Shown: positions 11,493-47,926 of the stretch, in pieces
Numbering within the stretch: position 1 is the stretch's first letter
Layout: every line of letters begins with the position of its first letter
NCBI GenBank assembly: GCA_963714085.1
Contig: OY970229.1
Coordinates: 1,507,540 to 1,571,539, forward strand
DNA from: an uncultured Candidatus Micrarchaeota archaeon
GTDB lineage: Archaea > Micrarchaeota > Micrarchaeia > Anstonellales > Bilamarchaeaceae
Length of the DNA: 64,000 nt
Direction: 5' to 3'
Notes under the pieces: model-generated
Databases searched by the model: none
What the model saw: only the letters and a program-made list of their open reading frames with translations
Told to the model about the DNA's origin: nothing
Position numbers and translations under genes: made by a program

Positions 11493-12272
11493 TTGAAATT
11501 GAAAACGCTGTCCGTCCTGTTGGTCCTCCTAGCCGTGGCATCCGCAACCGCTCCGACTTGGATAGCGCCCGGAGTCAGCCTGAACTATACCTCCGGAACC
11601 ACCTCGGTCTCGTTCGCGGTGACCAGCGCGACGAGCGGCAAGATAGGCATCTCGCTCACCACCTCGCCGCCCCCGAATACGAATAATTTCGAAGAGAACG
11701 CCACTTTGACCTCGGGCCAGTTCTGGTTCGACCCCAACATGATATCCCATGCCTACCAGGGCGAACTGATCAACGGCTTCACCGTCACGAGCACCGGCCC
11801 GCAGTCATTCGCAGGCCAGTCCTGGAACACGGCGACGCTCAGGGGGATCGTGAGCGGCGCGGAGACCAGCTATACATACGACGAGCAGACCGGATTGCTG
11901 CTGGAACAGACCGTGGAGGCGTCCGGAGTGCCAAACGTCGTCCTGTCGCAGTATTACATCCCGGCCCTCGCGCCTCCGCCGCAGAACATCACGCCTCCGC
12001 CGCAGAACACCACGGTGCCTCCTGCTCCGCAGCCCAACGCCACCATCGCGCCCCCGCCCGTACCGCCGGCCGTGAACACCACCGCGCAGGGCAATTCAAC
12101 GGACAATTCTTCGGCCGTGCAGCCAACGGACAACTCGTCCCTGGTTCCATCTGGCGCGGGCGACCAGGGTTCGACGTCGAGCGACCAGTCCTCTTCGTCA
12201 TCGCTCCCCTGCTGCCCGACCTCGTTCATACTGCTGCTCGCGGGATTCGTGGCGATCAAGGCCGCCAGATGA
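11493..12272 (+). CDS. Secreted surface protein with Pro/Ser/Thr linker and C-terminal Cys-Cys-Pro anchor-like segment
   Basis: Signal peptide; PPPQN repeats; ends SSSSLPCCPTSFILLLAGFVAIKAAR. Confidence 0.8.
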   Translation: MKLKTLSVLLVLLAVASATAPTWIAPGVSLNYTSGTTSVSFAVTSATSGKIGISLTTSPPPNTNNFEENATLTSGQFWFDPNMISHAYQGELINGFTVTSTGPQSFAGQSWNTATLRGIVSGAETSYTYDEQTGLLLEQTVEASGVPNVVLSQYYIPALAPPPQNITPPPQNTTVPPAPQPNATIAPPPVPPAVNTTAQGNSTDNSSAVQPTDNSSLVPSGAGDQGSTSSDQSSSSSLPCCPTSFILLLAGFVAIKAAR

Positions 12273-12330
12273 AAATGGGAAAAAGCTTCCGGCCGTGGTC
12301 TGGCGCGATTGAGCTACTCGTTTTTTTCTT

Positions 12331-12996
12331 TTACGGACTGGAGCATGCCCCTATCTCTTCTATTGAAATCACCCTTCTCGGAGGAGGGCTTAACGCGCCG
12401 TTGTAAAACGACCTGTCAAACAGGGCTATCCTGCCGGCTGAAGGCAAACCCTCGCTATTTGCGAAACCGACTATCAATCTCTCGGCTTCAGCGGAAAAAG
12501 CGCGTGCTGGAAGCCTGTCTTCATCATCCGGCAGTATGTACGGGTTTTTCCTTCCTCCCAGGATGATCGACACGTGCGGCGCGACATGGGGATGAACGCG
12601 CGCTATCATCATTGGAAGTTCAAGCTGTTGTCGAATCTCTGGTGAAAATTCCCGGTAGTGCTTCAAAAAAGCGAATACGTCCGTTCCGTTTTTCATCGCT
12701 TCGCATACCATGTGGAAAAGTTGTTCTTTTACCCCACCCACCTCTTCTGTGCGGGCGAAAAAATCCCTGTTGAACGACTGTTGGCCTTTTCCTACGATAT
12801 AGACGACCAATCTTTGATATACGTCTGGATCGCGGCCCGCCTCATTGCTTTGCCTTCGCATCTCCCTCGTTTCCAGTTCTTCCGGAGGCTGAAGAGCATA
12901 CCCTTTGGCCCTGGCCGTCTCGCTAAATTCATTGAATCTTTGCTCTACCGTCTTGCGCCCTGCTCCGTTTTTTGGCTGTATTTGTGTGCTTGCCAT
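12331..12996 (-). CDS. Hypothetical protein (lower GC, accessory)
   Basis: 221 aa ORF with AT-rich upstream region. Confidence 0.65.
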   Translation of the reverse strand: MASTQIQPKNGAGRKTVEQRFNEFSETARAKGYALQPPEELETREMRRQSNEAGRDPDVYQRLVVYIVGKGQQSFNRDFFARTEEVGGVKEQLFHMVCEAMKNGTDVFAFLKHYREFSPEIRQQLELPMMIARVHPHVAPHVSIILGGRKNPYILPDDEDRLPARAFSAEAERLIVGFANSEGLPSAGRIALFDRSFYNGALSPPPRRVISIEEIGACSSP

Positions 12997-13261
12997 AAGA
13001 GAATCCCTGTTCCATGCCGTGATTCTTTGCCAGGTACTATTGTGCTATGTCATACTTAAAAATCTATCATTCATAACACAAGATGTTTAATATAAACGGT
13101 ATTACATTTGTTTCTTCGCCCTCCCGCTCCACTCGCGCTCATAGTTTGTCTTTTTCTGGCATCTTCATCCCGTCGATTCGCGCTCCGCCAGCGAATCCTT
13201 TTTATTGGTTGCCCCTGAAATAGCTTAACTCTTCTACTTATGCGCGGGTTCAGGTGACTCC

Positions 13262-16200
13262 ATGGCAATCACGAAGATACGGAAAAGGGATGGAACTGTA
13301 GTCGACTTCGACAAGGAAAAGATCGTCAACGCCATATTCAAGTCCGCGCAGGCGGTCGGCGGCTCGGACCGCGAGGAGTCCGCGAGGGTCGCGGACCACG
13401 CCATCGAGCTTCTGGGGCAGAAGTTCAAGGAGGATTACACCCCCACGGTGGAAGACGTCCAGGATATCGTTGAGAAGGCGCTCATAGACACCGGCCATGC
13501 GACGACCGCGAAATCCTACATCTTATACAGGCACAGGAAGACGGTGGAGAGGGAGGCCAAGCGCGTCCTCGGAGTCAAGGACGACCTCAAGCTCCCGCTC
13601 AACTCCGTGCAGGTGCTCGAGAGGAGATACCTGCTCAAGGACGACGAGGGCAAGGTCATAGAGACGCCCAGCCAGCTCTTCAGGAGGGTCGCGGACTTCA
13701 TCGCTTCCAACGAGAAGCGCTACGAGGCGGACGCCAAGACCGAGAAATTCTACGCCGACGCGTTCTACGAGATAATGACGACATTCGAGTTCCTGCCCAA
13801 CTCGCCCACATTGATGAATGCGGGCACGGGGCTCGGACAATTATCTGCATGCTTCGTGCTCCCTGTGAAGGACGACATCGAGCAGATATTCGATTCCGTG
13901 AAGCACGCGGCGATCATTCACAAGACCGGCGGCGGGTGCATACTGAAGGGCTCGCGGGTCTACTCGACGTTCTGCGGGTCCGAGGCCATAGACCGGCTGT
14001 ACGATTCCTTTGATTCAGGTTCCAACGTGATACCGGAGAACGGGGCCTTCTACATTGACATCAGCGATGAAAGCATCCGCGTCCCGTCGTTCGACAAGTC
14101 CACCGGCTCCATGGCTTTCGTGCCGGTGCAGAAGATATGGAAGTACATCCTGCCATCCGAGAAGACATTCACGATGAAAGCAGTAGGCGGCTACCATGCG
14201 ACAACGAGCGAGTGGCACCCGTTCTTCGTATTCGAGAACGGCGCGATAATGGAGAGGAGGGCGGACGAACTGAAAGCCGGCGACCTGCTCATCACGTCCA
14301 ACCCGACGCTCAAGGACGCCTGGGCATACTCCAAGAACCATGTTATGGAGGGGATCGAGCTCGACGAGGATCTCGCATGGCTCGCAGGCATATTCTCGAC
14401 CGACGGCTCGCTCGACGAGATACGGCAGGGGCCGAGATTCAGGGTGTTCTCCGCAGACCAGGCTATAATCGACCGCGCGCTGGACATAGTGGAGAAAAAA
14501 ACCGGGAAACGCTACGCAGTGGAGACGGATTACCGCTCGAAAAACCCGGTCATGCGCATAACCGCCTACGATAAGGCTCTCATGGCGGCCTTGAAGAGGC
14601 TGAACCGCGGGATCACCGGCAACAAGACGCGGACCGTCAGGATCCCGGCCGAGGTCTTCAAATCCCCGCTGCCGATCATCGGCGCCTATCTCGGGGGAGT
14701 GATAGACGGGGACGGGCATATCCAGAAGAGCAAGCCCCAGATGGAGATTTCCGGAGCAAGCAAGGAATTCATGGAGGACCTGTGTTCCCTCTTCTCCTTG
14801 TTCGGGATCAAGAGCCGGTACAGGAGGAGAGTCGATCCCAGGAATCCGGATTGGGTCGAGATGTACGAGGTCAGCGTGAGCGGGCAGATAAGCCTGAAGA
14901 GGCTGGCGGACCTGGTCCTGCCCTACATCGTCCTCGAGCGGAAGCGCTCGCGGCTGGAGGCGTATATGAAGAAAACACATTCCTCGAGCCCGGCTAACCT
15001 GGATTTCGCCCTGATAGAGCCAATCCTGAACGAGGCCGGCATCGACACCAAGAACACGGAGATATGGCGCAAAAGCGTGAAAGTCGGGAGCCTTAAGATA
15101 TTCCTCGCGCGCTGGAAGAAGAAGGGAAAGGTGAACCAGACGAAAGCGGTCTCGCTGCTCGAGGAACTGCTGAAGATGGATGTATCCGCGGAATCGAAAC
15201 AAAAGCTCAACCTGCTCATCAACGTCCTGCCGAGCCTCATGGAAATCAAGTCCGTGACCCGGAGCCAGGCGGGCGCAGAGCTCGAGTTCTACGATTTCAC
15301 GGTCCCCGGGACGCAGAACTACCTGGCAGGGAACATGGGGTTGTCTATAATACATAACACCGGGTTCTGCTTCTCCTACCTCAGGCCGAAAGGGGATTAC
15401 GTGAAGAGTACCGCCGGCGTCGCGTCCGGGCCGCTGTCCTTCATGAGCGCGTTCGACAACGCGACCAACGTGATAAAACAGGGAGGATGCGTATCCTCCG
15501 ATTCCCTTGTCAGGACCACCAAAGGGGTGATGGCCCTGAAAAGATTCCTGAATTGCCCGAAGATGGGTGACGCTCCGGCGGATGCCCTCGTATTCACCAA
15601 CGGAAGTTTCAGCAATGCGTATCTCGCCGAGGACAACGGACTTTCGGAAGTGGAAGTCATCACGACCGAAATCGGCACCGAATTGAAGGCGACTTACAAC
15701 CACTCCGTATGCGTAGTGGACGCTGACGGGAAATTCGCATGGAAAGAAGTTTCCCAGTTGAAGAAAGATGATTGGGTCGTCCATGTGCTCGGAGGCCATT
15801 GCGGGATGGACCAACCGCTCCCCAAAGCGGATTTCAAGCTCCACTTCAACGCGAACAAAGTCCGCATACCCAAGAAAATGTCTCCGGACCTTGCGGAATT
15901 GCTCGGCATGTACGTGGCCAACGGCTGCATCAGCGGAAACAGGATTATCTTTGCTGTCGAGAAAAAGGACAAGCAGCTAATCATGAGGCTAAAAACCCTG
16001 ATGGCCGGCCTTTTCAACCTGACCTTCTGCAGGATGGAGGAGAAGGAGAATGACGCATCCTATTGCATGGTCTTCTATTCGAAAGAGCTGGCTAAGTACT
16101 TCGGCAGTGCGGGCTGGAAGAAAAACGGCGCAAAGGACGCTTTCATACCGGACGTAATCTTCGAATCGTCCGAACAAAGCGCGAGGGCGTTCCTGAAAGG

Positions 16201-19168
16201 GCTGTTCGAGGGAGACGGTGACGTCCACAGCGACGGCTATCCAAGGCTCTACTCAATCTCCGAAAGATTGATAAAACAGGTGCAGCAGCTCCTTTTCGGC
16301 CTTGGTATAGTGTCCACCTGGCACAGCTATGACCATCCGGAGAACCGGTTCGGAAAGACTCCGATATGCCACCTGATGGTCATCCAGCAGGACAGCATGG
16401 AAAAATTCTCCAGGGACATCGGATTCATAACCTCGAGGAAGAACAACCTGCTCTCTTCGAGGAAAAAAGCAAGGGCGTTCGAATACTTCGACGTGATCCC
16501 AAACCAGGAAAAACTGCTCAGGTCCTTGTACCGCGGACCCGGGAGGGGATGCGCAAAAGGGAAGAAAAGCAAAGGGGCGGACCGGGTTTTCTACAAGGCG
16601 CTCCAGCACTACTTGGGTGGCGTTTCGACCGTGACAAAAAGGAATCTCACGCGGATGAGGCTGAAATCCCTGATGGCGCGGTTCGAACAGCTCAGATGCG
16701 AGCAGCTTGAGAAGGTCTGCAACGAGCAGTATTTCTATTCGAGGGTCAAGGAAATCACCCACGCCAAGGATTACACCATGGACATCATGGTCCCAGGTTC
16801 GGAGAAGTTCGTGGCGAACAGCATGCTCGTGCATAATAAAAGGCGCGGGGCGAACATGGGCGTGCTCCATGTCTGGCATCCTGACATAGAGGAGTTCATA
16901 ACCGCGAAGCAGACCAGCGGCGTGCTGGAGAACTTCAACGTCAGCGTCGCGATAGACGACAAGTTCATGAAGGCTGTGGAGAGCGACGGCGAATACGAGC
17001 TCATAAACCCGAGGAACAGCAAGGTGGTGCGCAAGGTGAGCGCCAGGAGCATATTCAAGCTCATCGCGTACTCAGCATGGAAGTCCGCGGAGCCGGGGCT
17101 GCTCTTCATAGACGAGATAAACAGGCGCAACCCGACGCCGAAATACCCGATAAACTCGACCAACCCGTGCGTGGTCGGAGACACCATCGTGACGACCAGC
17201 GAGGGGCTGATCGAGATACCGAAAGTCCACAACCCCCACTGGGTGCTCGGCCATGACGGCGGATACCACCCGGTCAGGTGGGCGGGAGAAACTGGCGAGA
17301 AAGAGGTGTTCCTGGTGCGGACCGAGGCCGGTTACGAGGCCAAGGCCACGGCGGACCACATGTTCCTCACCACGAAAGGATGGAAGCAGGTGCGCGAGCT
17401 TACTAAGAAGGACAGGCTGGTGGTCCAGAAAGAGGGCGCGTTCGGGAACGGGCACATCGACAAGCAGATGGCGCTCATGCTCGGGTGGCTGGTCGGGGAC
17501 GGCACGCTGACCAAGGGCGCCCAGGACGCGATATTCTATTTCGGCGCGCAAGAGAAGGAGGAGATGCTCCCGCTGTTCAAGTCCTATCTGGACAAGCTGA
17601 ACGGCTCGGCAGTCAGGCCCATAAAGGACAAGACCGAGACCAGGCTCAAATACTCCTCGAAGATAGCCGCGAGGTTCCAGGATCTCGGCGTGAAGCCGGT
17701 GAAAGCCGAAAACAAGGAAGTCCCCGCCTCGGTATTCACCATGGACCGCGAGACCGTCGCGTTGTTCCTGTCCGCGTTGTTCGGGGCGGACGGTTCGGTG
17801 CAGGGGAGCAAGGAGAAAGGGATAAGCATAAGGCTCGCCTCGAACTCCTCAAGGCTGCTCAAGCAGGTCCAGGTCCTGCTGCTCCAGTTCGGGATAGTAT
17901 CCAAGGTCTACGAGAACAGGAGGAACGCGCACGTGAAGATGATGCCGGATTCCGACAGGCAGATGAAGGCATACTCGTGCAAGGCGCAGCACGAGCTGAT
18001 AATCTCCCGCGAGAGCATGTTCAGGTTCATGCAGAAGATAGGATTCTGCATAGCTGCGAAGAACGAGAAGTTCGCGAGGCTCAAGCCCAAGGAGATATAT
18101 TCCGATGACATCGACCTGTCCGTCAAATCCGTGGAGAAAGCCGGAGTCGCGAAGGTCTACGACCTGACCGAGCCCACGACCCATTCGTTCTCAGCGAACG
18201 GGCTCATGGTGCACAACTGCGGCGAGGTCCCGATGCCGGACTACGAGTCCTGCAACCTCGGTTCCATAAATCTGGTGTGCTTCGTGGACTTCGACTGGTC
18301 CAAGACCCAGTGGAAAAAGAAGGTGGACTGGAAGCGGATGCGCTACGTCATCCGGCTCGCGGTCCAGTTCCTCGACAACGTCATAGACCTCAACAACTAC
18401 CCGATCCCCCAGATAAAGGAGCACACCATCCACCACCGGAGGATCGGCCTCGGCATAATGGGCTTCTCCAAGATGCTCGCCAAGATAGGCGTGCGCTACG
18501 ACAGCCCCGAGGCGCTGGAGGTGGCGGAGGAGACCATGAAGTTCGTGACGGACGAGGCCATGAAGATGTCCCACGAGCTCGGCCGCGCGCGCGGCTCGTT
18601 CCCAGGATTCGCGGAGAGCACCTGGGCAGGCAAGTACGACGCGCTGCGCAACGCGACCGTGACTTCCATAGCGCCCACGGGCACGATCTCCATGATAGCC
18701 GACTCCTCCAGCGGCATAGAGCCGATGTTCGCATTGTCCTACATAAAGACCGTGATGGACGGCACCAAGCTCTACTACTCGGACGACGTGTTCGAGCACG
18801 TGCTGAAGGTCCGCGGATTGTACTCCCCTGAGCTCATGCAGGACGTCATAGACAACGGCACTGTGCAGGGCATGGACAGCATACCCAAGGAGATACAGAA
18901 CGTTTTCGTTGTGGCCCACGACATACCGTCCGACCGCCACGTGATGATACAGGCCGCGTTCCAGCGCCACACGGACCTCGCGGTGAGCAAGACCATAAAC
19001 ATGCCGGCCGAGGCGACCGTGGAGGACGTCGAGCGCGCTTACATGCTCGCCTGGAAGGAGGGCTGCAAGGGCATCACGATATATCGGGACGGCAGCAGGG
19101 GCGAGGGCGTGCTGACCAAGAGGAAGAAGGAGAAGGCGGACCCCCCGAAGGAGCCGATGGAGGGATAA
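13262..19168 (+). CDS. nrdJ: Class II (adenosylcobalamin-dependent) ribonucleotide reductase with N-terminal ATP cone and three inteins (694 aa extein)
   Basis: KIRKRDG ATP cone; FLPNSPTLMNAG, LSACFV, RRGANM, TNP-CGE, CNLGSINL, IAPTGTIS, KGITIYRDGSR. Confidence 0.96.
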   Translation: MAITKIRKRDGTVVDFDKEKIVNAIFKSAQAVGGSDREESARVADHAIELLGQKFKEDYTPTVEDVQDIVEKALIDTGHATTAKSYILYRHRKTVEREAKRVLGVKDDLKLPLNSVQVLERRYLLKDDEGKVIETPSQLFRRVADFIASNEKRYEADAKTEKFYADAFYEIMTTFEFLPNSPTLMNAGTGLGQLSACFVLPVKDDIEQIFDSVKHAAIIHKTGGGCILKGSRVYSTFCGSEAIDRLYDSFDSGSNVIPENGAFYIDISDESIRVPSFDKSTGSMAFVPVQKIWKYILPSEKTFTMKAVGGYHATTSEWHPFFVFENGAIMERRADELKAGDLLITSNPTLKDAWAYSKNHVMEGIELDEDLAWLAGIFSTDGSLDEIRQGPRFRVFSADQAIIDRALDIVEKKTGKRYAVETDYRSKNPVMRITAYDKALMAALKRLNRGITGNKTRTVRIPAEVFKSPLPIIGAYLGGVIDGDGHIQKSKPQMEISGASKEFMEDLCSLFSLFGIKSRYRRRVDPRNPDWVEMYEVSVSGQISLKRLADLVLPYIVLERKRSRLEAYMKKTHSSSPANLDFALIEPILNEAGIDTKNTEIWRKSVKVGSLKIFLARWKKKGKVNQTKAVSLLEELLKMDVSAESKQKLNLLINVLPSLMEIKSVTRSQAGAELEFYDFTVPGTQNYLAGNMGLSIIHNTGFCFSYLRPKGDYVKSTAGVASGPLSFMSAFDNATNVIKQGGCVSSDSLVRTTKGVMALKRFLNCPKMGDAPADALVFTNGSFSNAYLAEDNGLSEVEVITTEIGTELKATYNHSVCVVDADGKFAWKEVSQLKKDDWVVHVLGGHCGMDQPLPKADFKLHFNANKVRIPKKMSPDLAELLGMYVANGCISGNRIIFAVEKKDKQLIMRLKTLMAGLFNLTFCRMEEKENDASYCMVFYSKELAKYFGSAGWKKNGAKDAFIPDVIFESSEQSARAFLKGLFEGDGDVHSDGYPRLYSISERLIKQVQQLLFGLGIVSTWHSYDHPENRFGKTPICHLMVIQQDSMEKFSRDIGFITSRKNNLLSSRKKARAFEYFDVIPNQEKLLRSLYRGPGRGCAKGKKSKGADRVFYKALQHYLGGVSTVTKRNLTRMRLKSLMARFEQLRCEQLEKVCNEQYFYSRVKEITHAKDYTMDIMVPGSEKFVANSMLVHNKRRGANMGVLHVWHPDIEEFITAKQTSGVLENFNVSVAIDDKFMKAVESDGEYELINPRNSKVVRKVSARSIFKLIAYSAWKSAEPGLLFIDEINRRNPTPKYPINSTNPCVVGDTIVTTSEGLIEIPKVHNPHWVLGHDGGYHPVRWAGETGEKEVFLVRTEAGYEAKATADHMFLTTKGWKQVRELTKKDRLVVQKEGAFGNGHIDKQMALMLGWLVGDGTLTKGAQDAIFYFGAQEKEEMLPLFKSYLDKLNGSAVRPIKDKTETRLKYSSKIAARFQDLGVKPVKAENKEVPASVFTMDRETVALFLSALFGADGSVQGSKEKGISIRLASNSSRLLKQVQVLLLQFGIVSKVYENRRNAHVKMMPDSDRQMKAYSCKAQHELIISRESMFRFMQKIGFCIAAKNEKFARLKPKEIYSDDIDLSVKSVEKAGVAKVYDLTEPTTHSFSANGLMVHNCGEVPMPDYESCNLGSINLVCFVDFDWSKTQWKKKVDWKRMRYVIRLAVQFLDNVIDLNNYPIPQIKEHTIHHRRIGLGIMGFSKMLAKIGVRYDSPEALEVAEETMKFVTDEAMKMSHELGRARGSFPGFAESTWAGKYDALRNATVTSIAPTGTISMIADSSSGIEPMFALSYIKTVMDGTKLYYSDDVFEHVLKVRGLYSPELMQDVIDNGTVQGMDSIPKEIQNVFVVAHDIPSDRHVMIQAAFQRHTDLAVSKTINMPAEATVEDVERAYMLAWKEGCKGITIYRDGSRGEGVLTKRKKEKADPPKEPMEG
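13937..15358 (+). mobile_element. Intein 1 in NrdJ (474 aa, LAGLIDADG endonuclease)
   Basis: GGG|CILKGS...IIHN|T; LAGIFSTDG and LGGVIDGDG motifs. Confidence 0.93.
15488..16837 (+). mobile_element. Intein 2 in NrdJ (450 aa, LAGLIDADG endonuclease) followed by Lys at +1
   Basis: KQGG|CVSSDS...TYNH...LVHN|KRRGANM; LLGMYVANG and LKGLFEGDG motifs. Confidence 0.92.
17168..18217 (+). mobile_element. Intein 3 in NrdJ (350 aa) just before the catalytic thiyl-radical Cys
   Basis: TNP|CVVGDT...TADH...MVHN|CGE; LGWLVGDG and LSALFGADG motifs. Confidence 0.94.
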
Positions 19169-20831: not shown

Positions 20832-22154
20832 TCAACGGTTTGCTGCCAGATATACGCCGAGATAATTTATCGCTGCCGTTGGACCGAACAGTCCAATCTG
20901 ATTGACAATCGCATGTTCTCTGAACTCTGTAAGCACGGTTTCGGTGCAGTCAGACAGTATCTTTTCCCAATCTGCATGACTTTCAAGGAACGTCCGTATC
21001 TCGGCGTAGGTCGGTTCTGTTCCTGTTGCTCTTCTGAATTGTTCCATGGCCTCTTCGCTGAAAATCCTTATCCCGCTAGTTACGGCAAACTGCTCTATCT
21101 CCCTGACTGTGGTAGTGGAGCAATTTCGTAAAAGCAACAAGCCACAGCGCCAGTCATGGTTGCGCTCTATGTACCTTTGCAGGTCTGCTAGGGTAGGTAC
21201 ACCCTCCTTCAAGACTTCGATGTTTTTCGGCATCTTTTTTCCAGATGGTTTAGGGTGATGATACCCGTGTAGCAAACAATCCAAAGCATTCCCGGCCCTC
21301 GCTCCCAAAAAACCGTATACCTCGCCACGCGATCGTTGTAACTCCTTTTGTTTTTCAATTCCATATCTGCTCGATGCTGCGCCTTCACCGATCCCAAACG
21401 TCTGTCCGATTTCCTTAAACGATAAACGTTGTACTTCTCTCAGTCTTACTATATCCTGATTGCGTTCGCTTCTAGCATTAGCTTGTTCACCCGTGTGGTT
21501 CGCTGCCCGTTCTATGCCGAGATACCTCATCGCTGCCTCTCGACCGAACGATCCAATCCGATTAACAATCACATGTTCTCTGAACTCTGTAAGCACGGTT
21601 TCGGTGCAGCCAGAATCCGACAGCCTCTTTCTCCAATCGGCATGGTTTTCAAGGAACGTCCGTATCTCGGCGTAGGTCGGTGCTGTTCCTGTCGCCCTTT
21701 CGAATTGTCCCAGGGCCTCTTCGCTAAAAATCCTTATCCCATTAGTTGCGGCAAACTGCTCTATCTCCCTGACCGTGGTAGTTGAGCAATTTCGTAAAAG
21801 CAACAAGCCACAGCGCCAGTCATGATTGCGCTCTATGTACCTTTGCAGATCTACTAGGGTAGGCGCACCCTCCATTAAGGGTTCGATGTTTTTCGGCATC
21901 GTTTTTACAGATGGTTTAAGCCGGCAATGCCCGGATAGCAAACAAGACAAGGCATTCCCGGCATCCCTTCCCAAAAAACCGTATACCTCTCCACGCGATC
22001 GTTGGAACTCCTTTCGTTTTTCCTTTTTATACCTTTGCCGTGCTGCCTCTTCACCGATCCCAAACGTCTGTCCGATTTCTTTAAACGATAAGTGTTGTCT
22101 TTCTCTCAGTATTACTACTTTAGCACTAACGGCTTTTGACGCGTCTTCAACCAT
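20832..22154 (-). CDS. Internally duplicated protein with sigma-4-like HTH and helix-hairpin-helix-like segments (lower GC)
   Basis: Two 222-aa units, each with LSFKEIGQTFGIGE.AA..RY and LLLLRNCSTTTVREIEQF. Confidence 0.75.
   Translation of the reverse strand: MVEDASKAVSAKVVILRERQHLSFKEIGQTFGIGEEAARQRYKKEKRKEFQRSRGEVYGFLGRDAGNALSCLLSGHCRLKPSVKTMPKNIEPLMEGAPTLVDLQRYIERNHDWRCGLLLLRNCSTTTVREIEQFAATNGIRIFSEEALGQFERATGTAPTYAEIRTFLENHADWRKRLSDSGCTETVLTEFREHVIVNRIGSFGREAAMRYLGIERAANHTGEQANARSERNQDIVRLREVQRLSFKEIGQTFGIGEGAASSRYGIEKQKELQRSRGEVYGFLGARAGNALDCLLHGYHHPKPSGKKMPKNIEVLKEGVPTLADLQRYIERNHDWRCGLLLLRNCSTTTVREIEQFAVTSGIRIFSEEAMEQFRRATGTEPTYAEIRTFLESHADWEKILSDCTETVLTEFREHAIVNQIGLFGPTAAINYLGVYLAANR
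20860..22110. repeat. Tandem direct duplication, 666-bp period, inside the CDS
   Basis: ccgatcccaaacgtctgtccgattt at 21388 and 22054; other long identical blocks at a similar offset. Boundaries approximate. Confidence 0.9.
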
Positions 22155-22451
22155 GTAAATATATATGCACCAACTCCTTTTAAATCTCACTACAAATCTA
22201 ATCGAATGACGACAATAAGAGGAATAGAACGCTACGGGGCAGGGGGATGGTTATGTTCGGCCCCAGTAGCGCGTCTCAAAGCGAGACATGTCTCTTATCA
22301 ACATAGATGTTTAAATATCTTTTCCTGTGTATGTGCGAACGCACATGGAGCTTTCACGACGTGAGGTATGAGCATATGAACTGTTTAGCAAAAAAAGCCG
22401 GTGTAAAACAACATAATCATATTTAAATTGTCTGTTGAACAACATGGTTCT

Positions 22452-41374: not shown

Positions 41375-41881
41375 TCAGAGCCCGGCCAGCCTCTCCGCGC
41401 CTTTTATGGATTCGATGAACTTCACAGTTCCTTCGGGCACGTGCTTCTTCCACTCCGGGTCGCCCTTGGCGATCAGCTCCCGGATGAGCCTGCCCTCCTT
41501 CGGCCCGCGGTCGAAGAACTCCACCGGTTTCAGCGGGATCCCGGCCTTGTGGAACAAATCAGCGACGACCTCGTTGTTGGAATACACCGCGTTGAAGTAC
41601 GGCACCAATGATTTCACGTGCCCCACCCATTTCGAATGGTCGTTCACGTCCCGCACCGGGATGATCAGCATCCTGGAGAGCTGCTCGCCGCTGAACGCGG
41701 CGCGTATCATCTCGATCCGCTCGCCCGCGGAAAAGGGATTCTCCTTGGTCATGGGCGACTCGGCCGAGCCCACGCAGATTATCACTTCGGCATGCTCCGA
41801 GAGCAGCCTCTCGACCACGCTCCTGTGGCCGTGGTGGAACGGCTGGAACCTCCCTATGAAAAGCGCCCTGTCAGCGGTCAT
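41375..41881 (-). CDS. nadM: Nicotinamide-nucleotide adenylyltransferase
   Basis: ALFIGRFQPFHHGH, NPFSAGERIEMI. Confidence 0.92.
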   Translation of the reverse strand: MTADRALFIGRFQPFHHGHRSVVERLLSEHAEVIICVGSAESPMTKENPFSAGERIEMIRAAFSGEQLSRMLIIPVRDVNDHSKWVGHVKSLVPYFNAVYSNNEVVADLFHKAGIPLKPVEFFDRGPKEGRLIRELIAKGDPEWKKHVPEGTVKFIESIKGAERLAGL

Positions 41882-44800
41882 TTCTTCACTGGTTTATCTG
41901 CCGTCTGGACGTGCTCGCTCCTCTTGTCGAACTTCACGCCCACTATCCTGGATTCGCCTCCTACCTTGGCCACGCCCAGCACGGTCTCGGCGGTCGACAT
42001 CACTATGTCGTTGTGGGACACGACCATGAACTGGGTGTCGGCCGCCATGCCGGACACGAGCTGGGAGAGGTTCTTGCTGTTCTCCTTGTCCAGCGCGGCG
42101 TCGACCTCATCAAGTATGTAGAACGGCGACGGCTTGAAGAACTGCATGGCGAATATGAACATCAGGGCCACCAGCGAGTTCTCTCCGCCTGAAAGCGAGT
42201 CTATGGAGTGCTCCACCACCTTGCCGTCCTTGCCCGCGCGCCTTATCTTGATGTACAGCCCGGACTCGAAGGGCTCGTTGGGCTTGTCCATGTAGAGGTA
42301 GCCCTCGCCTATCTTCAGGTAGGTGAACATCTTCTTGAAGTTCTCGCTGACGGAATAGAAGGTCTTGAAGAACGCGTCCTTCTTGTGCTGCTCGATCTCG
42401 TTTATCATGTCGAGGATGGACTTGCGCTCGTCGCCCAGCTTGTTTATCTTCTCCTCCACCCCCTCTATCTCGGCCTTCTTCCTCCCGTACATCTCTATCG
42501 CCGCCATGTTGACGTTCGGCATGGAGTCTATCAGCGCCTCGGCCTCGCTTATCATGGCGTTGAGCTCGTCTTTTTTCACTCCGTCGAGCAGCTCCGCGTC
42601 CTGGTATTTCACGAACTCGGCCCTGATGTCCTCCAGGCGCGTGGCGGCGGTAGCCTTCCGGACCTCCAGCTGCCCCATATCCTTGTTGAATTTGTCCAGC
42701 TCGAGCCTCTTCTCGGCCCGCTGCCTGCTCAGCTCGGTTATCTCCTTCTCCATGCCCTTCATCTTCTCCATGAGCTTCTCGCTCTCCTTGGATATGCCCG
42801 AGACCTTGTCCTCGAGCTTGAGCAGCTCCTCCTGCTCGCCCACGGCCTGGCGCTTGAGCTCGTTTATCTTCGCGATCGCGTCCTTGGCCTCCTTCTCCAG
42901 CTCCTTCACGCGCTTCTCCTTGGCCCGCAGCTCGCCCTTGCGTATCTCCAGCTCCTTCGCCTTGCCCTCTATCGTCGCTCGTAGCGAGGACACCTTCGAG
43001 GCGAACTCCGTGCGCTTCCTGCCCGCCTCGGCGGACGCGCTCTCGAACTTCTTCTCCGCGGCCTCCAGCTTCGTCCTCAATTCCAGCATCTTCGCCTGCC
43101 CGGCCTCTATCTGGGACGCCAGGGACGCCATCTCGCCGGCTTTCGCCTTGAGCAGCGCCTCCATTTCGGCTATCTCGGAGAGCACGCCGTCCCTGCGCTT
43201 GAGCTCGTCGCGCAGCCTCGCGCTGTCCTCCTCGTGGCGCCGCAGCTCCATCTCGAGGGTCTTCATCTTCAGCTCGAGCTCGGACTTCCTCGCGCGCATG
43301 TCCTGCTCGGACTGCCTTATGGAATACAGCTCCTGGACCAGCGATGCCTTGGCGCCCTTCAAGGACTCGAGCTGCGTCTCTATCTTCTTGAGCTGGCTGT
43401 TGCCGAGCAGCGAGGAGTCCTGCCTCCCTCCGCTCACTATGCCGGAGCGCTCGAATATCTCGCCGTCCATGGTGACCATGCGGTGCTTGCCGACCCCTAT
43501 CCTCTTCGCGTCGTCCGCCCCGTCCACCAGCAGCGTCTCTCCGAAGACGTACTCCATCGCGCGCCGGACATGCGCCGGGCAGCTTATGACCTCGAGCACG
43601 GACTCGAATCCGTTGTGCTTGGCCGCCGCGGAGACGCGCACGTCGTTGAGCGGTATGAACGTCGCCCTGCCGGCCTTGGCCTTCTTCAGCCGGTCTATCA
43701 CCCTGGTGGCCGCGTCTATGTCGTCCACCACCACGTAGAGCAGCCTGCTGCCCCCGCACGCCTCCACCGCCTGCGCGTGCTTGGGCTCGAACGCTATGAG
43801 GTCGGCCACGGTGCCGTGTATCCCGTTGCCGTCCTTCTCCCTCATGGCGGCTATGAACTGCAGCGCGGGGTTGGCCAGCTGTGGCGACGCGCGCACCTTG
43901 TGCACGGCCTTGGCCTCGTTGAGCTCGAGGAGCTTCCTGTCCAGCTCGCGCACCTCGTCGTTTATCTCCTTGGTCCTTGCGAACGAGGCCTCTATGTCGT
44001 CGCCTATGCCTTTGGCGGCTTTCCTCAGCGACTCCACCTCCTTGTCGGAGGCCTCCGCCTCAGGGGCTTCGGGCGCTATGCGCTCGGCGTCCTCCTTCTT
44101 CATGGCGATTATCTCGCGCTTGGACTCGGTCTCGCTTTTCACGCTCGCGAGCTTCTCCCGCAGCCCCTGCACGTTCTCGGACGCCTGCGCCACCGAGGTC
44201 CGGAGCGAATCGACCTCCTCGTTGCGGATGAGGGCCGCCTGTGCCGCGGCCGCGGCCTCCAGCGACTTCAGCTCGTCCTTCATCCTGCCCACTTCGGAGT
44301 CCAAGGCCTTGAGCTCGTCCCCCTCCTTGCCTACCCCCTTGGAGATGCTCTCCGCGTCCTCGTTGGCCTTGGCGACCGACTCCTCCTTGTCCTTGGACAT
44401 CTGTATCTTGGAGCTGGCCGACGCTTTCAGCTCCTCTATCCTGCGTATTATGGTGGACGTCTGCTGCCTCTCCACGAGCTCGCGGTTGGTCTGGTAGCGC
44501 TGCGCCTCTACCGCGGCGATCTTCGCGTCCAGCTCCGCGTGGTCCTTTTCCCGCGCGCCCATGTTGAACCGTATCTTCTCCTCGAGCTTGGCCGCATCGG
44601 CGAGCTCCTTCTCCAGCCGGTTCAGCTCGCTTTTCAGCAGCGTGCCCCTCGCGCTCGAGAGCTTCTTCTTCGCGTCCATGAACTTGAGCGCGGCCTCCTT
44701 CTCCTGCTCGAGCTGGTTCAGTATCGCCTGGCGCTCGCCCAGTATTATGGAGGCGTCCTTTATCCTCGACTCCACGATGTCCAGCTCGCCTATGGACTCC

Positions 44801-46926
44801 TTCTTCTTGGACTCGAAGTCCGATATGCCGGCCACTGAGTCTATTATGGTGCGCCGCTCCTTGCCTCCCATGTTGATTATCCTGGCGACCTCGCCCTGCG
44901 CGATTATGTTCCTCCCGGACTCGTCGAGGTTGTACTTCTTCATGCAGTCGAGTATCGCGTTCCTCGTGGTCTTCTTGCCGTTTAGCCGGTAGAGTATCTT
45001 GCCGTCCTCGCGGATCACGCGCTTGAGCTCCAGCTTCGTGTCCCCGTCGAACTCCATTGTGACCTCCGCGGTCCTCGCTCCGGTGTGGATGAGGTCGCGG
45101 ACCTTCTTGGCCCGCAGCGATTTCAGGGATATCTCCCCCATGACGAAGCGTATCGCGTCGCCGAAATTGCTGTTATGGACTATCATGCCGTTCGCGATGA
45201 AATTATGGTGCTCCCCGATGCTCAGGTCGTAGACCCATTCCTCCCTGGGTGCGGTCGCCTCTATGCTTTCGACCTCGTCCCAGAAGATATCCGATTGGGA
45301 AAGCAGTTCCAGGCGCGCGACAGCCTCGGATTCAATCTGTTTCTGGAGCGCCACCGGGCGCATGGCATTGACCAGGAGATGCCTGATCCCGTAGCGGGAG
45401 GGAAGGCATTGGTCGTAGCAGTATGCATCTAGACGCGGGAACTCCTTTTTCATCCTCTTGACTGAGATGCCGAGGTCGCTGACCGCGGTCCTGACAACTG
45501 AATTGGCTTCTATAAGGTCCACGTTGGGATTGATCTTTTTTTGGACGAGGCGCCTGAGTCGTTCCGATTTCTTTTTATGCACCATTTTAACGTTCCGCTC
45601 GAACAACGCCATGTTCTCGATTTCTGAAATCGTCAGCTTCAGGTAGGAACCGACAAAACCTGTTTTGGTCTCTCTCTTGGAGACCCTCGCCTTCCTTGGA
45701 ACTACCCCCAGCCGGAGCAGTATCGATTCCACGCCGCTTATGAGCCTCTCGCTTTTCAGCGTGAGCTCGACGGTATTCTTCGAGACGTAACCATCCCCGC
45801 AGAACAACCCGTTGAGGAGGTTGGACAGCTGCTCGTCCGTGCTGTGCTTGAGCAGCAGGTCCGATATGTATTTTCCTTCTGCACCTTGGAAAGACATCCC
45901 GAGCTTCAACAGGAGGTTCCTCAAGGCAGTATTGTTGATTATCACATCGCAGGCGTTCTCCTTGTATTTGTAAATGTGGGGTTCGACATGGAAAACGTCC
46001 CTGGTGATCCTGGCGAAATCCTGCACGACCTCCTCGCAGCCGTTGGTGAACCTGATCTGATTGTTGTGCATGCTCGTGCTTCCATCAGCCAGGAGATAGC
46101 CGAGGAACCTGCAAAGCTCATTGGAATTCTGCCATGGCATCCTCAGGATGGAACCAGCGCCATCGCCTTTCACTTCCGTTATCAGCTGGGCGGTCTCTAT
46201 ATCGCTGAAGCCGAAGAACCTCAGTGTCCGCACCAGGTAAGGGAATTGGATCGCTTGTTCCATGTTCACAAAGCACGTGAGGGCTGTTTCGGGAAGCTGT
46301 AGCTTTTCCCCCAGCGTTCCCCAGGTCATTCCGGCCTTTTTGGATCGGATTATCGTGGCTATCTTCTCATCGTATGGCACGTAAATCTTGTCATCGGGGC
46401 TTATGAGGTCGAGGAACTCCAGGAAGAACGGCTCCTGAGGCTCCACCGGCACCTTGCGCGGCACGGCGATCCTTATCCTCTCCTTCAGCTCGTCCGCGCG
46501 TATCGGGCGGATTTGGCCGTTGTCGAGAATGAAAAAAGGATGGTACTCGGTCGCGACTATCTCCTTTCCCGAGCGGGTCCTCACCCTGAGCATCCTGCTG
46601 GGGGCCTTCCTCTTCACGAAGGCGGCAATCGCCCTTTTCGTTATCTTCAGGCTGTTGGTATCCAGGGTGAGTATCTCCTTCGGGGCCTCGGCCTGGGCGA
46701 CATAACCATCGTCCATCTCTTCGACATGGCCGTTCGAGAGCGCATGGTCCACGAGGTCGCGAATCTTCTCGGTCGTGCCGTCGGAGAGCAACACCTCGGT
46801 GTCGCCATCCACGCACTTTCCCGACCCGTTCGGGCCCGCGAGGCAGACGAACGATTTGGGGAGATCTATGTTCACGAGCTTGAATGACTTGAAATTCCTG
46901 ATTTTGACCCTGGAAATGTAGATCAT
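41878..46926 (-). CDS. smc: Chromosome segregation protein SMC with one intein (1134 aa extein)
   Basis: NFKSF, GPNGSGK|SN, coiled coils, hinge GRATFIPL, LSGGE, FYILDEVDAALD. Confidence 0.96.
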   Translation of the reverse strand: MIYISRVKIRNFKSFKLVNIDLPKSFVCLAGPNGSGKCVDGDTEVLLSDGTTEKIRDLVDHALSNGHVEEMDDGYVAQAEAPKEILTLDTNSLKITKRAIAAFVKRKAPSRMLRVRTRSGKEIVATEYHPFFILDNGQIRPIRADELKERIRIAVPRKVPVEPQEPFFLEFLDLISPDDKIYVPYDEKIATIIRSKKAGMTWGTLGEKLQLPETALTCFVNMEQAIQFPYLVRTLRFFGFSDIETAQLITEVKGDGAGSILRMPWQNSNELCRFLGYLLADGSTSMHNNQIRFTNGCEEVVQDFARITRDVFHVEPHIYKYKENACDVIINNTALRNLLLKLGMSFQGAEGKYISDLLLKHSTDEQLSNLLNGLFCGDGYVSKNTVELTLKSERLISGVESILLRLGVVPRKARVSKRETKTGFVGSYLKLTISEIENMALFERNVKMVHKKKSERLRRLVQKKINPNVDLIEANSVVRTAVSDLGISVKRMKKEFPRLDAYCYDQCLPSRYGIRHLLVNAMRPVALQKQIESEAVARLELLSQSDIFWDEVESIEATAPREEWVYDLSIGEHHNFIANGMIVHNSNFGDAIRFVMGEISLKSLRAKKVRDLIHTGARTAEVTMEFDGDTKLELKRVIREDGKILYRLNGKKTTRNAILDCMKKYNLDESGRNIIAQGEVARIINMGGKERRTIIDSVAGISDFESKKKESIGELDIVESRIKDASIILGERQAILNQLEQEKEAALKFMDAKKKLSSARGTLLKSELNRLEKELADAAKLEEKIRFNMGAREKDHAELDAKIAAVEAQRYQTNRELVERQQTSTIIRRIEELKASASSKIQMSKDKEESVAKANEDAESISKGVGKEGDELKALDSEVGRMKDELKSLEAAAAAQAALIRNEEVDSLRTSVAQASENVQGLREKLASVKSETESKREIIAMKKEDAERIAPEAPEAEASDKEVESLRKAAKGIGDDIEASFARTKEINDEVRELDRKLLELNEAKAVHKVRASPQLANPALQFIAAMREKDGNGIHGTVADLIAFEPKHAQAVEACGGSRLLYVVVDDIDAATRVIDRLKKAKAGRATFIPLNDVRVSAAAKHNGFESVLEVISCPAHVRRAMEYVFGETLLVDGADDAKRIGVGKHRMVTMDGEIFERSGIVSGGRQDSSLLGNSQLKKIETQLESLKGAKASLVQELYSIRQSEQDMRARKSELELKMKTLEMELRRHEEDSARLRDELKRRDGVLSEIAEMEALLKAKAGEMASLASQIEAGQAKMLELRTKLEAAEKKFESASAEAGRKRTEFASKVSSLRATIEGKAKELEIRKGELRAKEKRVKELEKEAKDAIAKINELKRQAVGEQEELLKLEDKVSGISKESEKLMEKMKGMEKEITELSRQRAEKRLELDKFNKDMGQLEVRKATAATRLEDIRAEFVKYQDAELLDGVKKDELNAMISEAEALIDSMPNVNMAAIEMYGRKKAEIEGVEEKINKLGDERKSILDMINEIEQHKKDAFFKTFYSVSENFKKMFTYLKIGEGYLYMDKPNEPFESGLYIKIRRAGKDGKVVEHSIDSLSGGENSLVALMFIFAMQFFKPSPFYILDEVDAALDKENSKNLSQLVSGMAADTQFMVVSHNDIVMSTAETVLGVAKVGGESRIVGVKFDKRSEHVQTADKPVKK
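45172..46815 (-). mobile_element. Intein in the SMC Walker A motif (548 aa, LAGLIDADG endonuclease)
   Basis: GSGK|CVDGDT...ATEYHPF...IVHN|S; LGYLLADG and LNGLFCGDG motifs. Confidence 0.94.
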
Positions 46927-47041
46927 GGGAACACTAACTCCATTTCGCGAATCAGGATTAAAAGGCTTGCTGCGCGGGATAACTAGTGTTGACTTAGGTG
47001 TATAAAAATGTTTCGTTACATATGTAATCAAGGTGATATTG

Positions 47042-47926
47042 ATGGCATACGCATTGAAACAAGATGTCGCTGGACACAAAGCGACGAAAACCGCATCGCT
47101 AATGCTCGCGCTCCCGCTCGCCGCAGGGCTGCTTTCATCCAAGGCCAGGGCTGAGACGGAAAACACCCCGACCAAGCCGACCGTTGCCGTGGAGCAGTAC
47201 ACTTATGTGAGCAGAGCCCAGGTAATACGGGGGCTTGTGACGAGCTGCCAGAAGAAAAATGATTGCGTGCTCCATTCCAACGTGAAAGCCGGGGACTCCC
47301 TTTTCACGCTAACCGACGCGAGAACCGGCGCGCTTGTTGTGGAAGCGAAAGTGACCGAAGTGAACCCGAACGGTGTTACTTTCACATTGAAAGATCCCGC
47401 GAGCAGGATTTCTGAGACGTTCACCCTGAATTACGACGGCACCGGGACGAACGTTCCGCAGTCGCTTGTGAATACATATTTCAATTGGAGCGGTTGGAAA
47501 GCGAAGAAGACCGCTGACCCGAACGTGGCCGAAGTCAGGCTGCCGGAAAATTTCGAATCAAGCGCGCACAAGTGGGCGCGAAAGACTAAAACCGAAATAG
47601 CTGGGAAAGGACTCGCGATGCTTATCCCGGCGCCGAAGGATGGTAATACGGGTTTCCTCGTGTTAGACCGCGACCTCGATGCGCCCGTGGTGACCAAGGT
47701 CGATGGCAAAGGGGTCGAATTCGTATTCCCGTATCAAGCCTTTCAAGTGCCTGAAACCGGATCTCATGCCGGAGGGCCCGTAAGGCTCGATTATGGCCAG
47801 GAATGCACAATCATACGAGATGTGAGCGTCATGTCGCTCAAAGCACAAAAAAGAACCGGCAAGTACACCGCGAACATGACCGTCACCGAGATGGAACCGG
47901 TATACGGGGACTCCGGCAGCAAATAA
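47042..47926 (+). CDS. Secreted hypothetical protein
   Basis: SD aggtga; signal peptide ending KARA; beta-rich mature part. Confidence 0.7.
   Translation: MAYALKQDVAGHKATKTASLMLALPLAAGLLSSKARAETENTPTKPTVAVEQYTYVSRAQVIRGLVTSCQKKNDCVLHSNVKAGDSLFTLTDARTGALVVEAKVTEVNPNGVTFTLKDPASRISETFTLNYDGTGTNVPQSLVNTYFNWSGWKAKKTADPNVAEVRLPENFESSAHKWARKTKTEIAGKGLAMLIPAPKDGNTGFLVLDRDLDAPVVTKVDGKGVEFVFPYQAFQVPETGSHAGGPVRLDYGQECTIIRDVSVMSLKAQKRTGKYTANMTVTEMEPVYGDSGSK

Follow-up and report, generated by a model that had tools for sequence, protein, structure and literature searches.

Can an intein leave its host protein when the residue that follows it has no nucleophilic side chain? The question is raised by a ribonucleotide reductase (RNR) gene of an uncultured Candidatus Micrarchaeota archaeon, which lies in a stretch of 64,000 nucleotides (hereafter the window) of contig OY970229.1 (assembly GCA_963714085.1, positions 1,507,540 to 1,571,539). 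The gene carries three inteins, and the second of these, intein 2, is followed by lysine at the first C-extein position (+1). Each of the three intein classes so far described relies on Cys, Ser or Thr at +1 (PMC7765530, PMC4031507). Intein 2 belongs to a clade that is real and apparently undescribed, and, judged by the sequences involved, the enzyme must mature by a route outside the described intein classes. The reading that we favour, and to which we give an even chance, is that a mobile intein of an old clade, seated at the tip of loop 2 of the reductase, may splice without any +1 side chain.

Intein 2 and its lysine junction

A single open reading frame (ORF) of 1968 amino acids occupies positions 13262-19168 of the plus strand, and Pfam recognises in it an ATP cone, the RNR barrel and three intein/LAGLIDADG inserts. 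The features needed here are listed below; fractions refer to 90 members of the clade (see the next section), and a slash within a motif marks a splice point.

13262..19168, plus strand: host gene, a class II (NrdJ-type) ribonucleotide reductase with an ATP cone (Pfam, 1xje alignment)
15479..15487, plus strand: Gln-Gly-Gly at the N-extein end, forming the effector-side half of loop 2, with Gly(-1) as predicted acyl donor
15488..16837, plus strand: intein 2, 450 amino acids (residues 743-1192), HINT splicing domain and LAGLIDADG endonuclease, of the clade with a non-nucleophilic +1 residue
15488..15490, plus strand: Cys1, 90/90
15692..15703, plus strand: block B TxxH (T69-Y-N-H72; T69 at 15692, H72 at 15701); T69 in 90/90, H72 in 86/90, Glu in 4
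15896..15925, plus strand: LAGLIDADG motif 1, ELLGMYVANG, with Asn145 in place of the acidic residue (Asp in 86/90)
16190..16219, plus strand: LAGLIDADG motif 2, FLKGLFEGDG, with Asp243 intact (Asp in 88/90)
16775..16810, plus strand: block F, Asp432 (16781) kept, E-K-F where relatives with Ser or Thr at +1 have His-Thr-Tyr; Asp 74, Glu 14, His 2 in the clade
16832..16837, plus strand: terminal His449-Asn450, 90/90
16838..16840, plus strand: +1 Lys (AAA), the host-native residue, aligned to Thermotoga maritima Arg206
16841..16858, plus strand: RRGANM, the substrate-side half of loop 2; its first Arg aligns to T. maritima Arg207 (Escherichia coli Arg298)

The junctions of intein 2 read IKQGG/CVSS...MLVHN/KRRGANM, with the +1 codon AAA at 16838-16840. 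A first-pass annotation of the window had reported Lys at +1 behind an otherwise intact intein at 15488-16840, and its Cys1, TxxH, block F Asp and His-Asn are all confirmed. It had also counted both LAGLIDADG motifs as present, which holds for motif 2 (Asp243) but not for motif 1; since Asn145 there replaces the Asp of 86 of the 90 clade members, the endonuclease of this copy is probably impaired. Within the insert Pfam matches Intein_splicing and LAGLIDADG_3 only. An AlphaFold2 model built from 60 sequences (predicted local distance difference test score 88.9) has endonuclease-bearing inteins as its best structural matches: TliVMA (7qss) is found by Foldseek at E 9e-28, with Z 31.5 and a root-mean-square deviation (rmsd) of 3.9 over 398 residues. 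The bacterial intein-like (BIL) domain 2lwy aligns with Z 16.4 and rmsd 1.9 over 126 residues.

Intein 2 thus has the marks of class 1, namely Cys1, T69/H72, D432, H449-N450 and the HINT fold, but lacks the Cys, Ser or Thr at +1 on which the block G branched intermediate of that class depends, with Lys in its place here and K, R, I, M or V across the clade. In class 2 the N-terminal nucleophile is absent and the +1 nucleophile attacks directly (PMC7765530); this class is ruled out by the presence of Cys1 and the absence of a nucleophile at +1. Class 3, which has a Cys at block F position 4 (WCT motif) and no Cys1 or Ser1, is likewise ruled out, as the clade has D74/E14/H2 at that position and an invariant Cys1. 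A downstream nucleophile or a shifted junction was also considered and rejected: none is present in KRRGANMGVLHVW, and excision at HN/K recreates the empty-allele sequence exactly. The host ORF is intact, as the first-pass annotation had described it, and so is the RNR motif left upon excision.

The lysine codon AAA lies one base away from the Thr codon ACA, and the simplest explanation of the anomaly would be a sequencing or assembly error, or RNA editing. The junction was examined in assembled contigs of three public runs (X1, X2 and X3, the latter two from a different study than X1), and AAA is read in all of them; a further run, X4, has no coverage there. X2 and X3 each provide one low-depth contig over the junction, and because these differ from the window only by synonymous T>C changes at 16834 and 16837, the HN/K reading stands. 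Moreover, eight different +1 codons (AAA, AAG, CGC, CGT, CGA, AGA, ATC and ATT) occur across the clade, so that no single error or edit would yield Ser, Thr or Cys. The recurrence of such junctions in independent genomes, for which the first-pass annotation had called, was found many times over among homologues, in GTDB and in metagenomes; at the level of sequence it settles the reality of the +1 Lys, and an error or editing is barely credible.

An empty allele of the family, with KQGG-K-RRGA, aligns to KQGS-R-RRGA of T. maritima (1xje), which places +1 at Arg206 and +2 at Arg207. T. maritima Arg207 corresponds to E. coli Arg298, within loop 2 (residues 292-301), and the E. coli Arg298Ala variant is nearly inactive (Zimanyi et al. 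2016, PMC4728125). From this alignment the scissile bond maps to E. coli residues 296/297, at the loop 2 tip, and a single residue separates it from the essential Arg. Contacts of the backbone make up most of the link that loop 2 forms between effector and substrate sites, and in the published contact scheme residues 295-297 are drawn as a mere line (PMC4728125).

The clade, its hosts and its surroundings

The best 120 of 221 homologous proteins all carry an intein at QGG/C...HN/xRRGA, and their +1 residues are K in 86 (intein 2 included), R in 15, I and T in 9 each, and M in 1. The first-pass annotation had raised the prospect that all inteins at this site might have C, S or T at +1; in 111 of these best 120 of 221 the residue is K, R, I or M. 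The HN/KRRGANM junction also occurs in G069, which belongs to the same family but another genus (59% identical). GTDB was also scanned independently of homology with the pattern HN-x-RRGA-[N/Q/K/H]-M. Once 8 chance matches had been removed from the 120 rows, the matches listed comprise 112 real junctions (T 64, S 21, K 13, R 12 and I 2), and the two kinds differ in their hosts: 83 of the 85 T/S junctions among them are bacterial, whereas 23 of the 27 K/R/I junctions are archaeal (Asgard groups, Aenigmatarchaeota, Nanobdellota, Woesearchaeota, Thermoplasmatota, Methanoperedens and others) and 4 bacterial. A metagenome scan with a pattern for K and R only gave 67 matches, 66 of them real after one chance match was dropped. 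All 59 wholly readable copies begin with Cys and are about 366-450 amino acids long; 1 of the 66 is broken, by a one-base frameshift relative to a 99.8% identical copy. Among viruses no K/R/I copy was found: the 4 IMG/VR matches all have T or S, and no annotated phage matched at E 1e-20.

Clustering at 90% identity left 90 inteins with K, R, I or M at +1 and 59 with S or T. Median identity is 45% within the K/R/I/M group (pairwise 27-90%) and 30% to the S/T group, and a tree of the splicing domain places the two on opposite sides of one branch with support 90. In a second tree, which includes inteins from other sites, 45 non-nucleophile members and one Ser+1 member form one branch with an SH-like approximate likelihood ratio test (SH-aLRT) value of 100; this was a quick IQ-TREE run on 151 columns with a midpoint root, with 30 of the 87 other-site inteins sampled and L025 left out. 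A profile search with the N-terminal splicing region against 1.84 billion representatives returned 143 new hits, 12 of them without a C-terminal end, and a stricter parse left out 24 of the 143. Every non-nucleophile +1 residue among the new hits (K 9, R 3, I 1, V 1) sits at the NrdJ loop 2 site, and the related inteins parsed at other sites have S, T or C at +1 in 87 of 87 cases. Within the tree the +1 residue switches repeatedly: the Arg state needs 6 changes, at least 4 of them forced by well-supported branches. The Arg+1 inteins of three Chloroflexota (L008, L037 and L060) group with that of a Thorarchaeota genome (L080), which suggests transfer between domains. At the same QGG/xRRGA site an Anaerolineae gene (L025) has a 139-amino-acid mini-intein with Ser+1, and L118 has a similar end.

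The splicing residues C1, T60, T69, N444, H449 and N450 are invariant in all 90 clade members, even in copies with a mutated or shortened endonuclease (intein 2 itself, L008, L026, L196 and L199). Of the pairs compared across 21 loci only two were unsaturated, and in these the ratio of non-synonymous to synonymous substitution rates is 0.042 and 0.086 in the splicing part and 0.082 and 0.148 in the middle. Block F differs between the two groups. Same-site inteins with S or T at +1 have D in 59/59, followed by N47-H42-T57-Y58 (n=59); in the clade (n=90) the Asp column reads D74/E14/H2 and the Tyr column F79/Y11, the His and Thr columns vary, and neither His (439) nor Thr (440) is among the four commonest clade residues at those columns. 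The block F Asp serves in +1 activation and the block F His in Asn cyclisation (PMC7765530, PMC4031507). Residues specific to the clade within the intein are R9, N29 and D49. No clade-specific conserved Cys, Ser or Thr was found in the splicing domain of the 90 members, which argues against an internal branch of the class 3 kind; such an internal nucleophile was rejected because the sole clade-specific conserved Cys, C147 (87/90), lies inside an endonuclease motif and C23 occurs in just 56/90.

Where did the lysine come from? Matches were found in 74 genomes of the family, and the 29 best-matching alleles taken from these all lack the intein; 27 read QGGKRRGANM and 2 QGGRRRGANM. The empty allele of the same genus has AAA at +1 and an extein 97% identical over the flanks compared; across the empty alleles of the family this identity ranges over 76-97%. 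The nearest inteins (58-60% identical) include several in hosts with only 56-65% extein identity over the flanks, and two in family-like hosts with 74-82%; pairs with P0068 were disregarded for their anomalously low flank identity. The G+C content at third codon positions (GC3) is 0.72 in the intein and 0.84-0.90 in the exteins. Together, the empty Lys alleles, the low likeness of the hosts and the GC3 gap point to a lateral move into an allele that already had Lys. By these comparisons the +1 residue belongs to the host, and the Lys did not arise afterwards from a Thr. Of 400 genomes of the phylum, 2 match at E<=1e-40, one of them at another site. Patchy presence, empty alleles in kin and lateral spread, the signs of homing, are thus all found. 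Read as a whole, these patterns indicate that the clade is an old, mobile lineage, not scattered decay or a one-off.

How far the hosts need the interrupted gene can be judged from their other reductases. The first-pass annotation had pointed to the possibility of another RNR in the genome, and none was found: a search of the genome bearing the window (G000; 87.65% complete, one contig) for a second class I/II large subunit, NrdD, a monomeric class II domain and NrdB was negative, and the NrdJ with intein 2 appears to be its sole RNR. Across 11 hosts the intein-bearing gene is the only RNR found in 8 (G000, G069, G401-G403, G428, G429 and G432); G401-G403 are recorded as complete genomes, and in this comparison NrdB was examined in five hosts and the monomeric domain in ten.

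The host protein itself has the features of a class II RNR: the barrel, catalytic Cys motifs, loop 2 and no NrdB found. Once the three inteins are taken out, a 694-amino-acid extein is left that retains the catalytic motifs LSACFV, NP/CGE, ESCNL and IAPTG, and L140, a family allele free of inteins, aligns with the NrdJ of T. maritima (1xje) at E 8e-131. Its other two inteins are canonical:

13937..15358, plus strand: intein 1, 474 amino acids (residues 226-699), GGG/C...HN/T, canonical Thr at +1
17168..18217, plus strand: intein 3, 350 amino acids (residues 1303-1652), NP/C...HN/C, canonical Cys at +1

A fourth intein of the window ends HN/S near 45170 on the minus strand, in a long ORF (41881-47202, 1774 codons stop to stop) that we take, from its motifs, to be SMC-like. 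The first-pass annotation had given the +1 residues of these three inteins as T, C and S, as they are. Intein 1 and the five other intein ends that a C-terminal profile detected in the genome all have S, T or C at +1. Elsewhere in the window, the minus-strand ORF at 20832-22190 (452 amino acids) consists of two near-identical units of ~215 amino acids, each opening with a helix-turn-helix-like stretch (LSFKEIGQTFGIGE), in DNA unlike its neighbours in style. The ~1 kb of DNA just upstream of nrdJ (12270-13260) has no convincing plus-strand gene, is AT-richer than the coding DNA and contains a 221-amino-acid ORF on the minus strand.

How the reductase could mature

In the reading that we favour, Cys1, aided by block B, would form a thioester with Gly(-1). 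Asn450 would then cyclise with no prior branched intermediate, freeing the alpha-amine of the +1 residue, and the folded reductase would keep both loop ends together. The freed alpha-amine could attack the unhindered Gly thioester to give a normal peptide bond with any +1 side chain, and some nicked by-product would be expected. Gly is the least hindered acyl donor. Since the clade has no +1 nucleophile, it can have no block G branched intermediate. To judge from its members the junction is indifferent to +1, as K, R, I, M and V all occur and match the residue of the host's empty allele. The final step has a precedent, as aminolysis of the thioester by the freed alpha-amine has been proposed for type A BIL domains (Mills, Johnson and Perler, PMC4031507).

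A number of observations weigh against such splicing. The type A BIL domains mostly cleave (PMC4031507), and according to one review they are unable to ligate (PMC7765530). Conservation of Cys1 and His-Asn would also be expected from pure self-excision; both ligation and cleavage require these residues, and sequence therefore cannot tell the two apart. The clade was found only in loop 2, its member at a shifted site (P0156) has Ser+1, and the Gly+1 inteins of class I enzymes are also found in loop 2, so that the site is implicated as much as the intein. No mini-intein of the clade was found below about 366 amino acids among the 59 complete metagenome copies, and when shorter proteins were searched, though weakly, the one hit among 93 candidates proved to be truncated. 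Catalytic residues vary as well: basal P0163 and L211 keep block F His-Asn-Tyr, and loss of the block F His is accordingly not required; Glu replaces the block B His in L047, L068, L026 and P0108, and His the block F Asp in L047 and P0108. The sole X1 contig over the junction (16310-17432) keeps AAA and reads G at 16837, which turns Asn450 into Lys; this is its only difference from the window in 1123 bases, and it may be an error or a rare inactive allele. Lastly, 3 of the 11 hosts have a second RNR, namely a second NrdJ in G404 and NrdD in G430 and G431.

Some of these sequences merit a remark of their own. P0156 (1111 amino acids) has its insertion one codon earlier, at QG/C...HN/SFRRGA; one tree puts it at the base of the clade and another inside it, which leaves its placement unsure, and it is possible that it represents a natural control or the ancestral state. 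The subgroup of L047, L068, L026 and P0108 is a further departure from canonical catalysis. In G404 (locus L128) the second, intein-free NrdJ-like ORF is a 713-amino-acid open frame that immediately precedes the K+1 gene in tandem; its loop 2 is divergent and reads IRQGFRRYST.

The most substantial alternative is cleavage alone, in which thioester hydrolysis and Asn cyclisation cut both ends and a two-chain reductase, nicked in loop 2, stays associated and active enough. The predominance of cleavage in BIL domains that lack a +1 nucleophile (PMC4031507) speaks for it, as does the place of the cut, in the E. coli 295-297 stretch drawn only as a line (PMC4728125); non-nucleophilic +1 residues were seen only in loop 2 while 87 of 87 related inteins elsewhere have S, T or C, and class I Gly+1 inteins occupy the same loop (PMC5784728). 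A natural two-chain RNR, that of phage Aeh1, is active, but it depends on acquired tails (PMC3045599), and there are none here. Loop 2 coupling, moreover, runs mainly through backbone contacts, and the Arg beside the nick is essential (PMC4728125); and a harmless break should let split or frameshifted forms pile up, whereas only 1 of 66 metagenome copies is broken. We regard a cut and working enzyme as the main rival, but as less probable than splicing. A relay through the host, in which a reductase Cys takes the acyl group from Cys1 as a branched intermediate and passes it to the +1 alpha-amine, would explain why the trait, in separate intein lineages, is confined to RNR loop 2, and the host's catalytic cysteines are kept in an active site that borders this loop. 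No Cys stands close to the junction in sequence (QGG/KRRGANMG), and the relay is a pure conjecture and a very improbable one.

It might also be that the intein is never removed, or the allele dead, so that homing maintains a parasite while the host lives on another reductase or on salvage. The second RNR in 3 of 11 hosts, the incompleteness of most of the genomes (87.65% for G000) and the Asn450 to Lys change in the X1 contig would fit; set against these are the 8 of 11 genomes with no other RNR found, the intact host ORF with an extein 97% identical to the same-genus empty allele over the flanks, and splicing residues that stay unchanged also in copies whose endonuclease is mutated or shortened, which make a dead allele very improbable. 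As for the lysine side chain, the first-pass annotation had suggested that its epsilon-amine attacks the thioester to give an isopeptide-linked enzyme. Lys does predominate at +1, with 86 of the best 120 of 221 homologues, but it is the usual host residue at the site, and Arg (15), Ile (9), Met (1) and Val (1) also occur at +1 within the clade, with K and R switching repeatedly on the tree; the suggestion falls on this variety, and the route is extremely unlikely.

Relation to known systems

Whichever of the two leading readings is true, a large natural clade breaks the +1 rule in a seemingly indispensable enzyme; therefore either +1-independent splicing exists or the specificity loop of an RNR works when cut. 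Efficient splicing of this kind has until now been proposed only as a minor reaction of BIL domains, and, if true, could be developed towards ligation without a trace and towards purification tags free of junction constraints. A working enzyme with a cut loop 2, if true, would bear on how allostery is transmitted through that loop. Annotation that requires S, T or C at +1 would misplace or dismiss such elements in either case. Ligation, if shown, would make the clade a new mechanistic class. In its full form, a fourth class of true inteins, mobile and with an endonuclease, would be housed in an essential and often sole enzyme and would carry out efficient, traceless aminolysis with any +1 residue, autonomously and with short flanks; this proposal is tentative and on balance unlikely, and, if true, would mean that protein splicing is no longer bound to Cys, Ser or Thr at +1. 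We found no paper on RNR inteins with K, R or I at +1 in the full-text literature, a search whose scope excluded subscription journals, InBase and preprint supplements.

Among known systems the nearest are the class 1 LAGLIDADG inteins, such as TliVMA (7QSS/7QSU) and PI-PfuI (1DQ3), with which intein 2 has in common the fold, Cys1, TxxH, the block F Asp, His-Asn and an embedded endonuclease. Class 1 inteins with Thr or Ser at +1 also share the conserved site QGG/xRRGA in the essential enzyme, where they account for 85 of the 112 real junctions among the GTDB matches listed. The clade is separate from them (median 30% identity), and the His-Thr-Tyr of their block F is mostly replaced.

Inteins without a +1 nucleophile at a related site do exist in print. 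The supplement of Green, Novikova & Belfort (2018, PMC5784728) has three Pandoravirus rows in which an intein in loop 2 of a class I RNR has Gly at +1, with the N-extein ending YVDQ and the C-extein starting GGGKRKGA. The loop is the same and a +1 nucleophile is likewise missing; in contrast to intein 2, the host is a class I enzyme, the insertion lies two residues earlier and the +1 residue is Gly. No comment on this junction was found in the available portion of PMC5784728, and the CroV entry of its supplement has Ser+1 and is hence canonical. The phage Aeh1 NrdA-a/NrdA-b system offers another kind of likeness, since a mobile endonuclease interrupts an RNR gene there and the enzyme works (PMC3045599). 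Aeh1, however, has two genes, essential acquired tails and no HINT domain, whereas intein 2 lies in one frame and has a full splicing domain.

Finally, the type A BIL domains, such as the C. thermocellum BIL (2LWY), share with intein 2 the HINT fold, Cys1 and terminal His-Asn without a +1 nucleophile. They reside in hypervariable regions of proteins that are not conserved (PMC7765530), and they mostly cleave. Intein 2, in contrast, carries an endonuclease, keeps to one site in an essential and conserved enzyme, is patchily distributed and, on trees of inteins, is of intein-like ancestry. By its sequence features, intein 2 is a class 1 homing intein with the junction chemistry predicted for a type A BIL domain, and it departs from each of the two in one defining respect.

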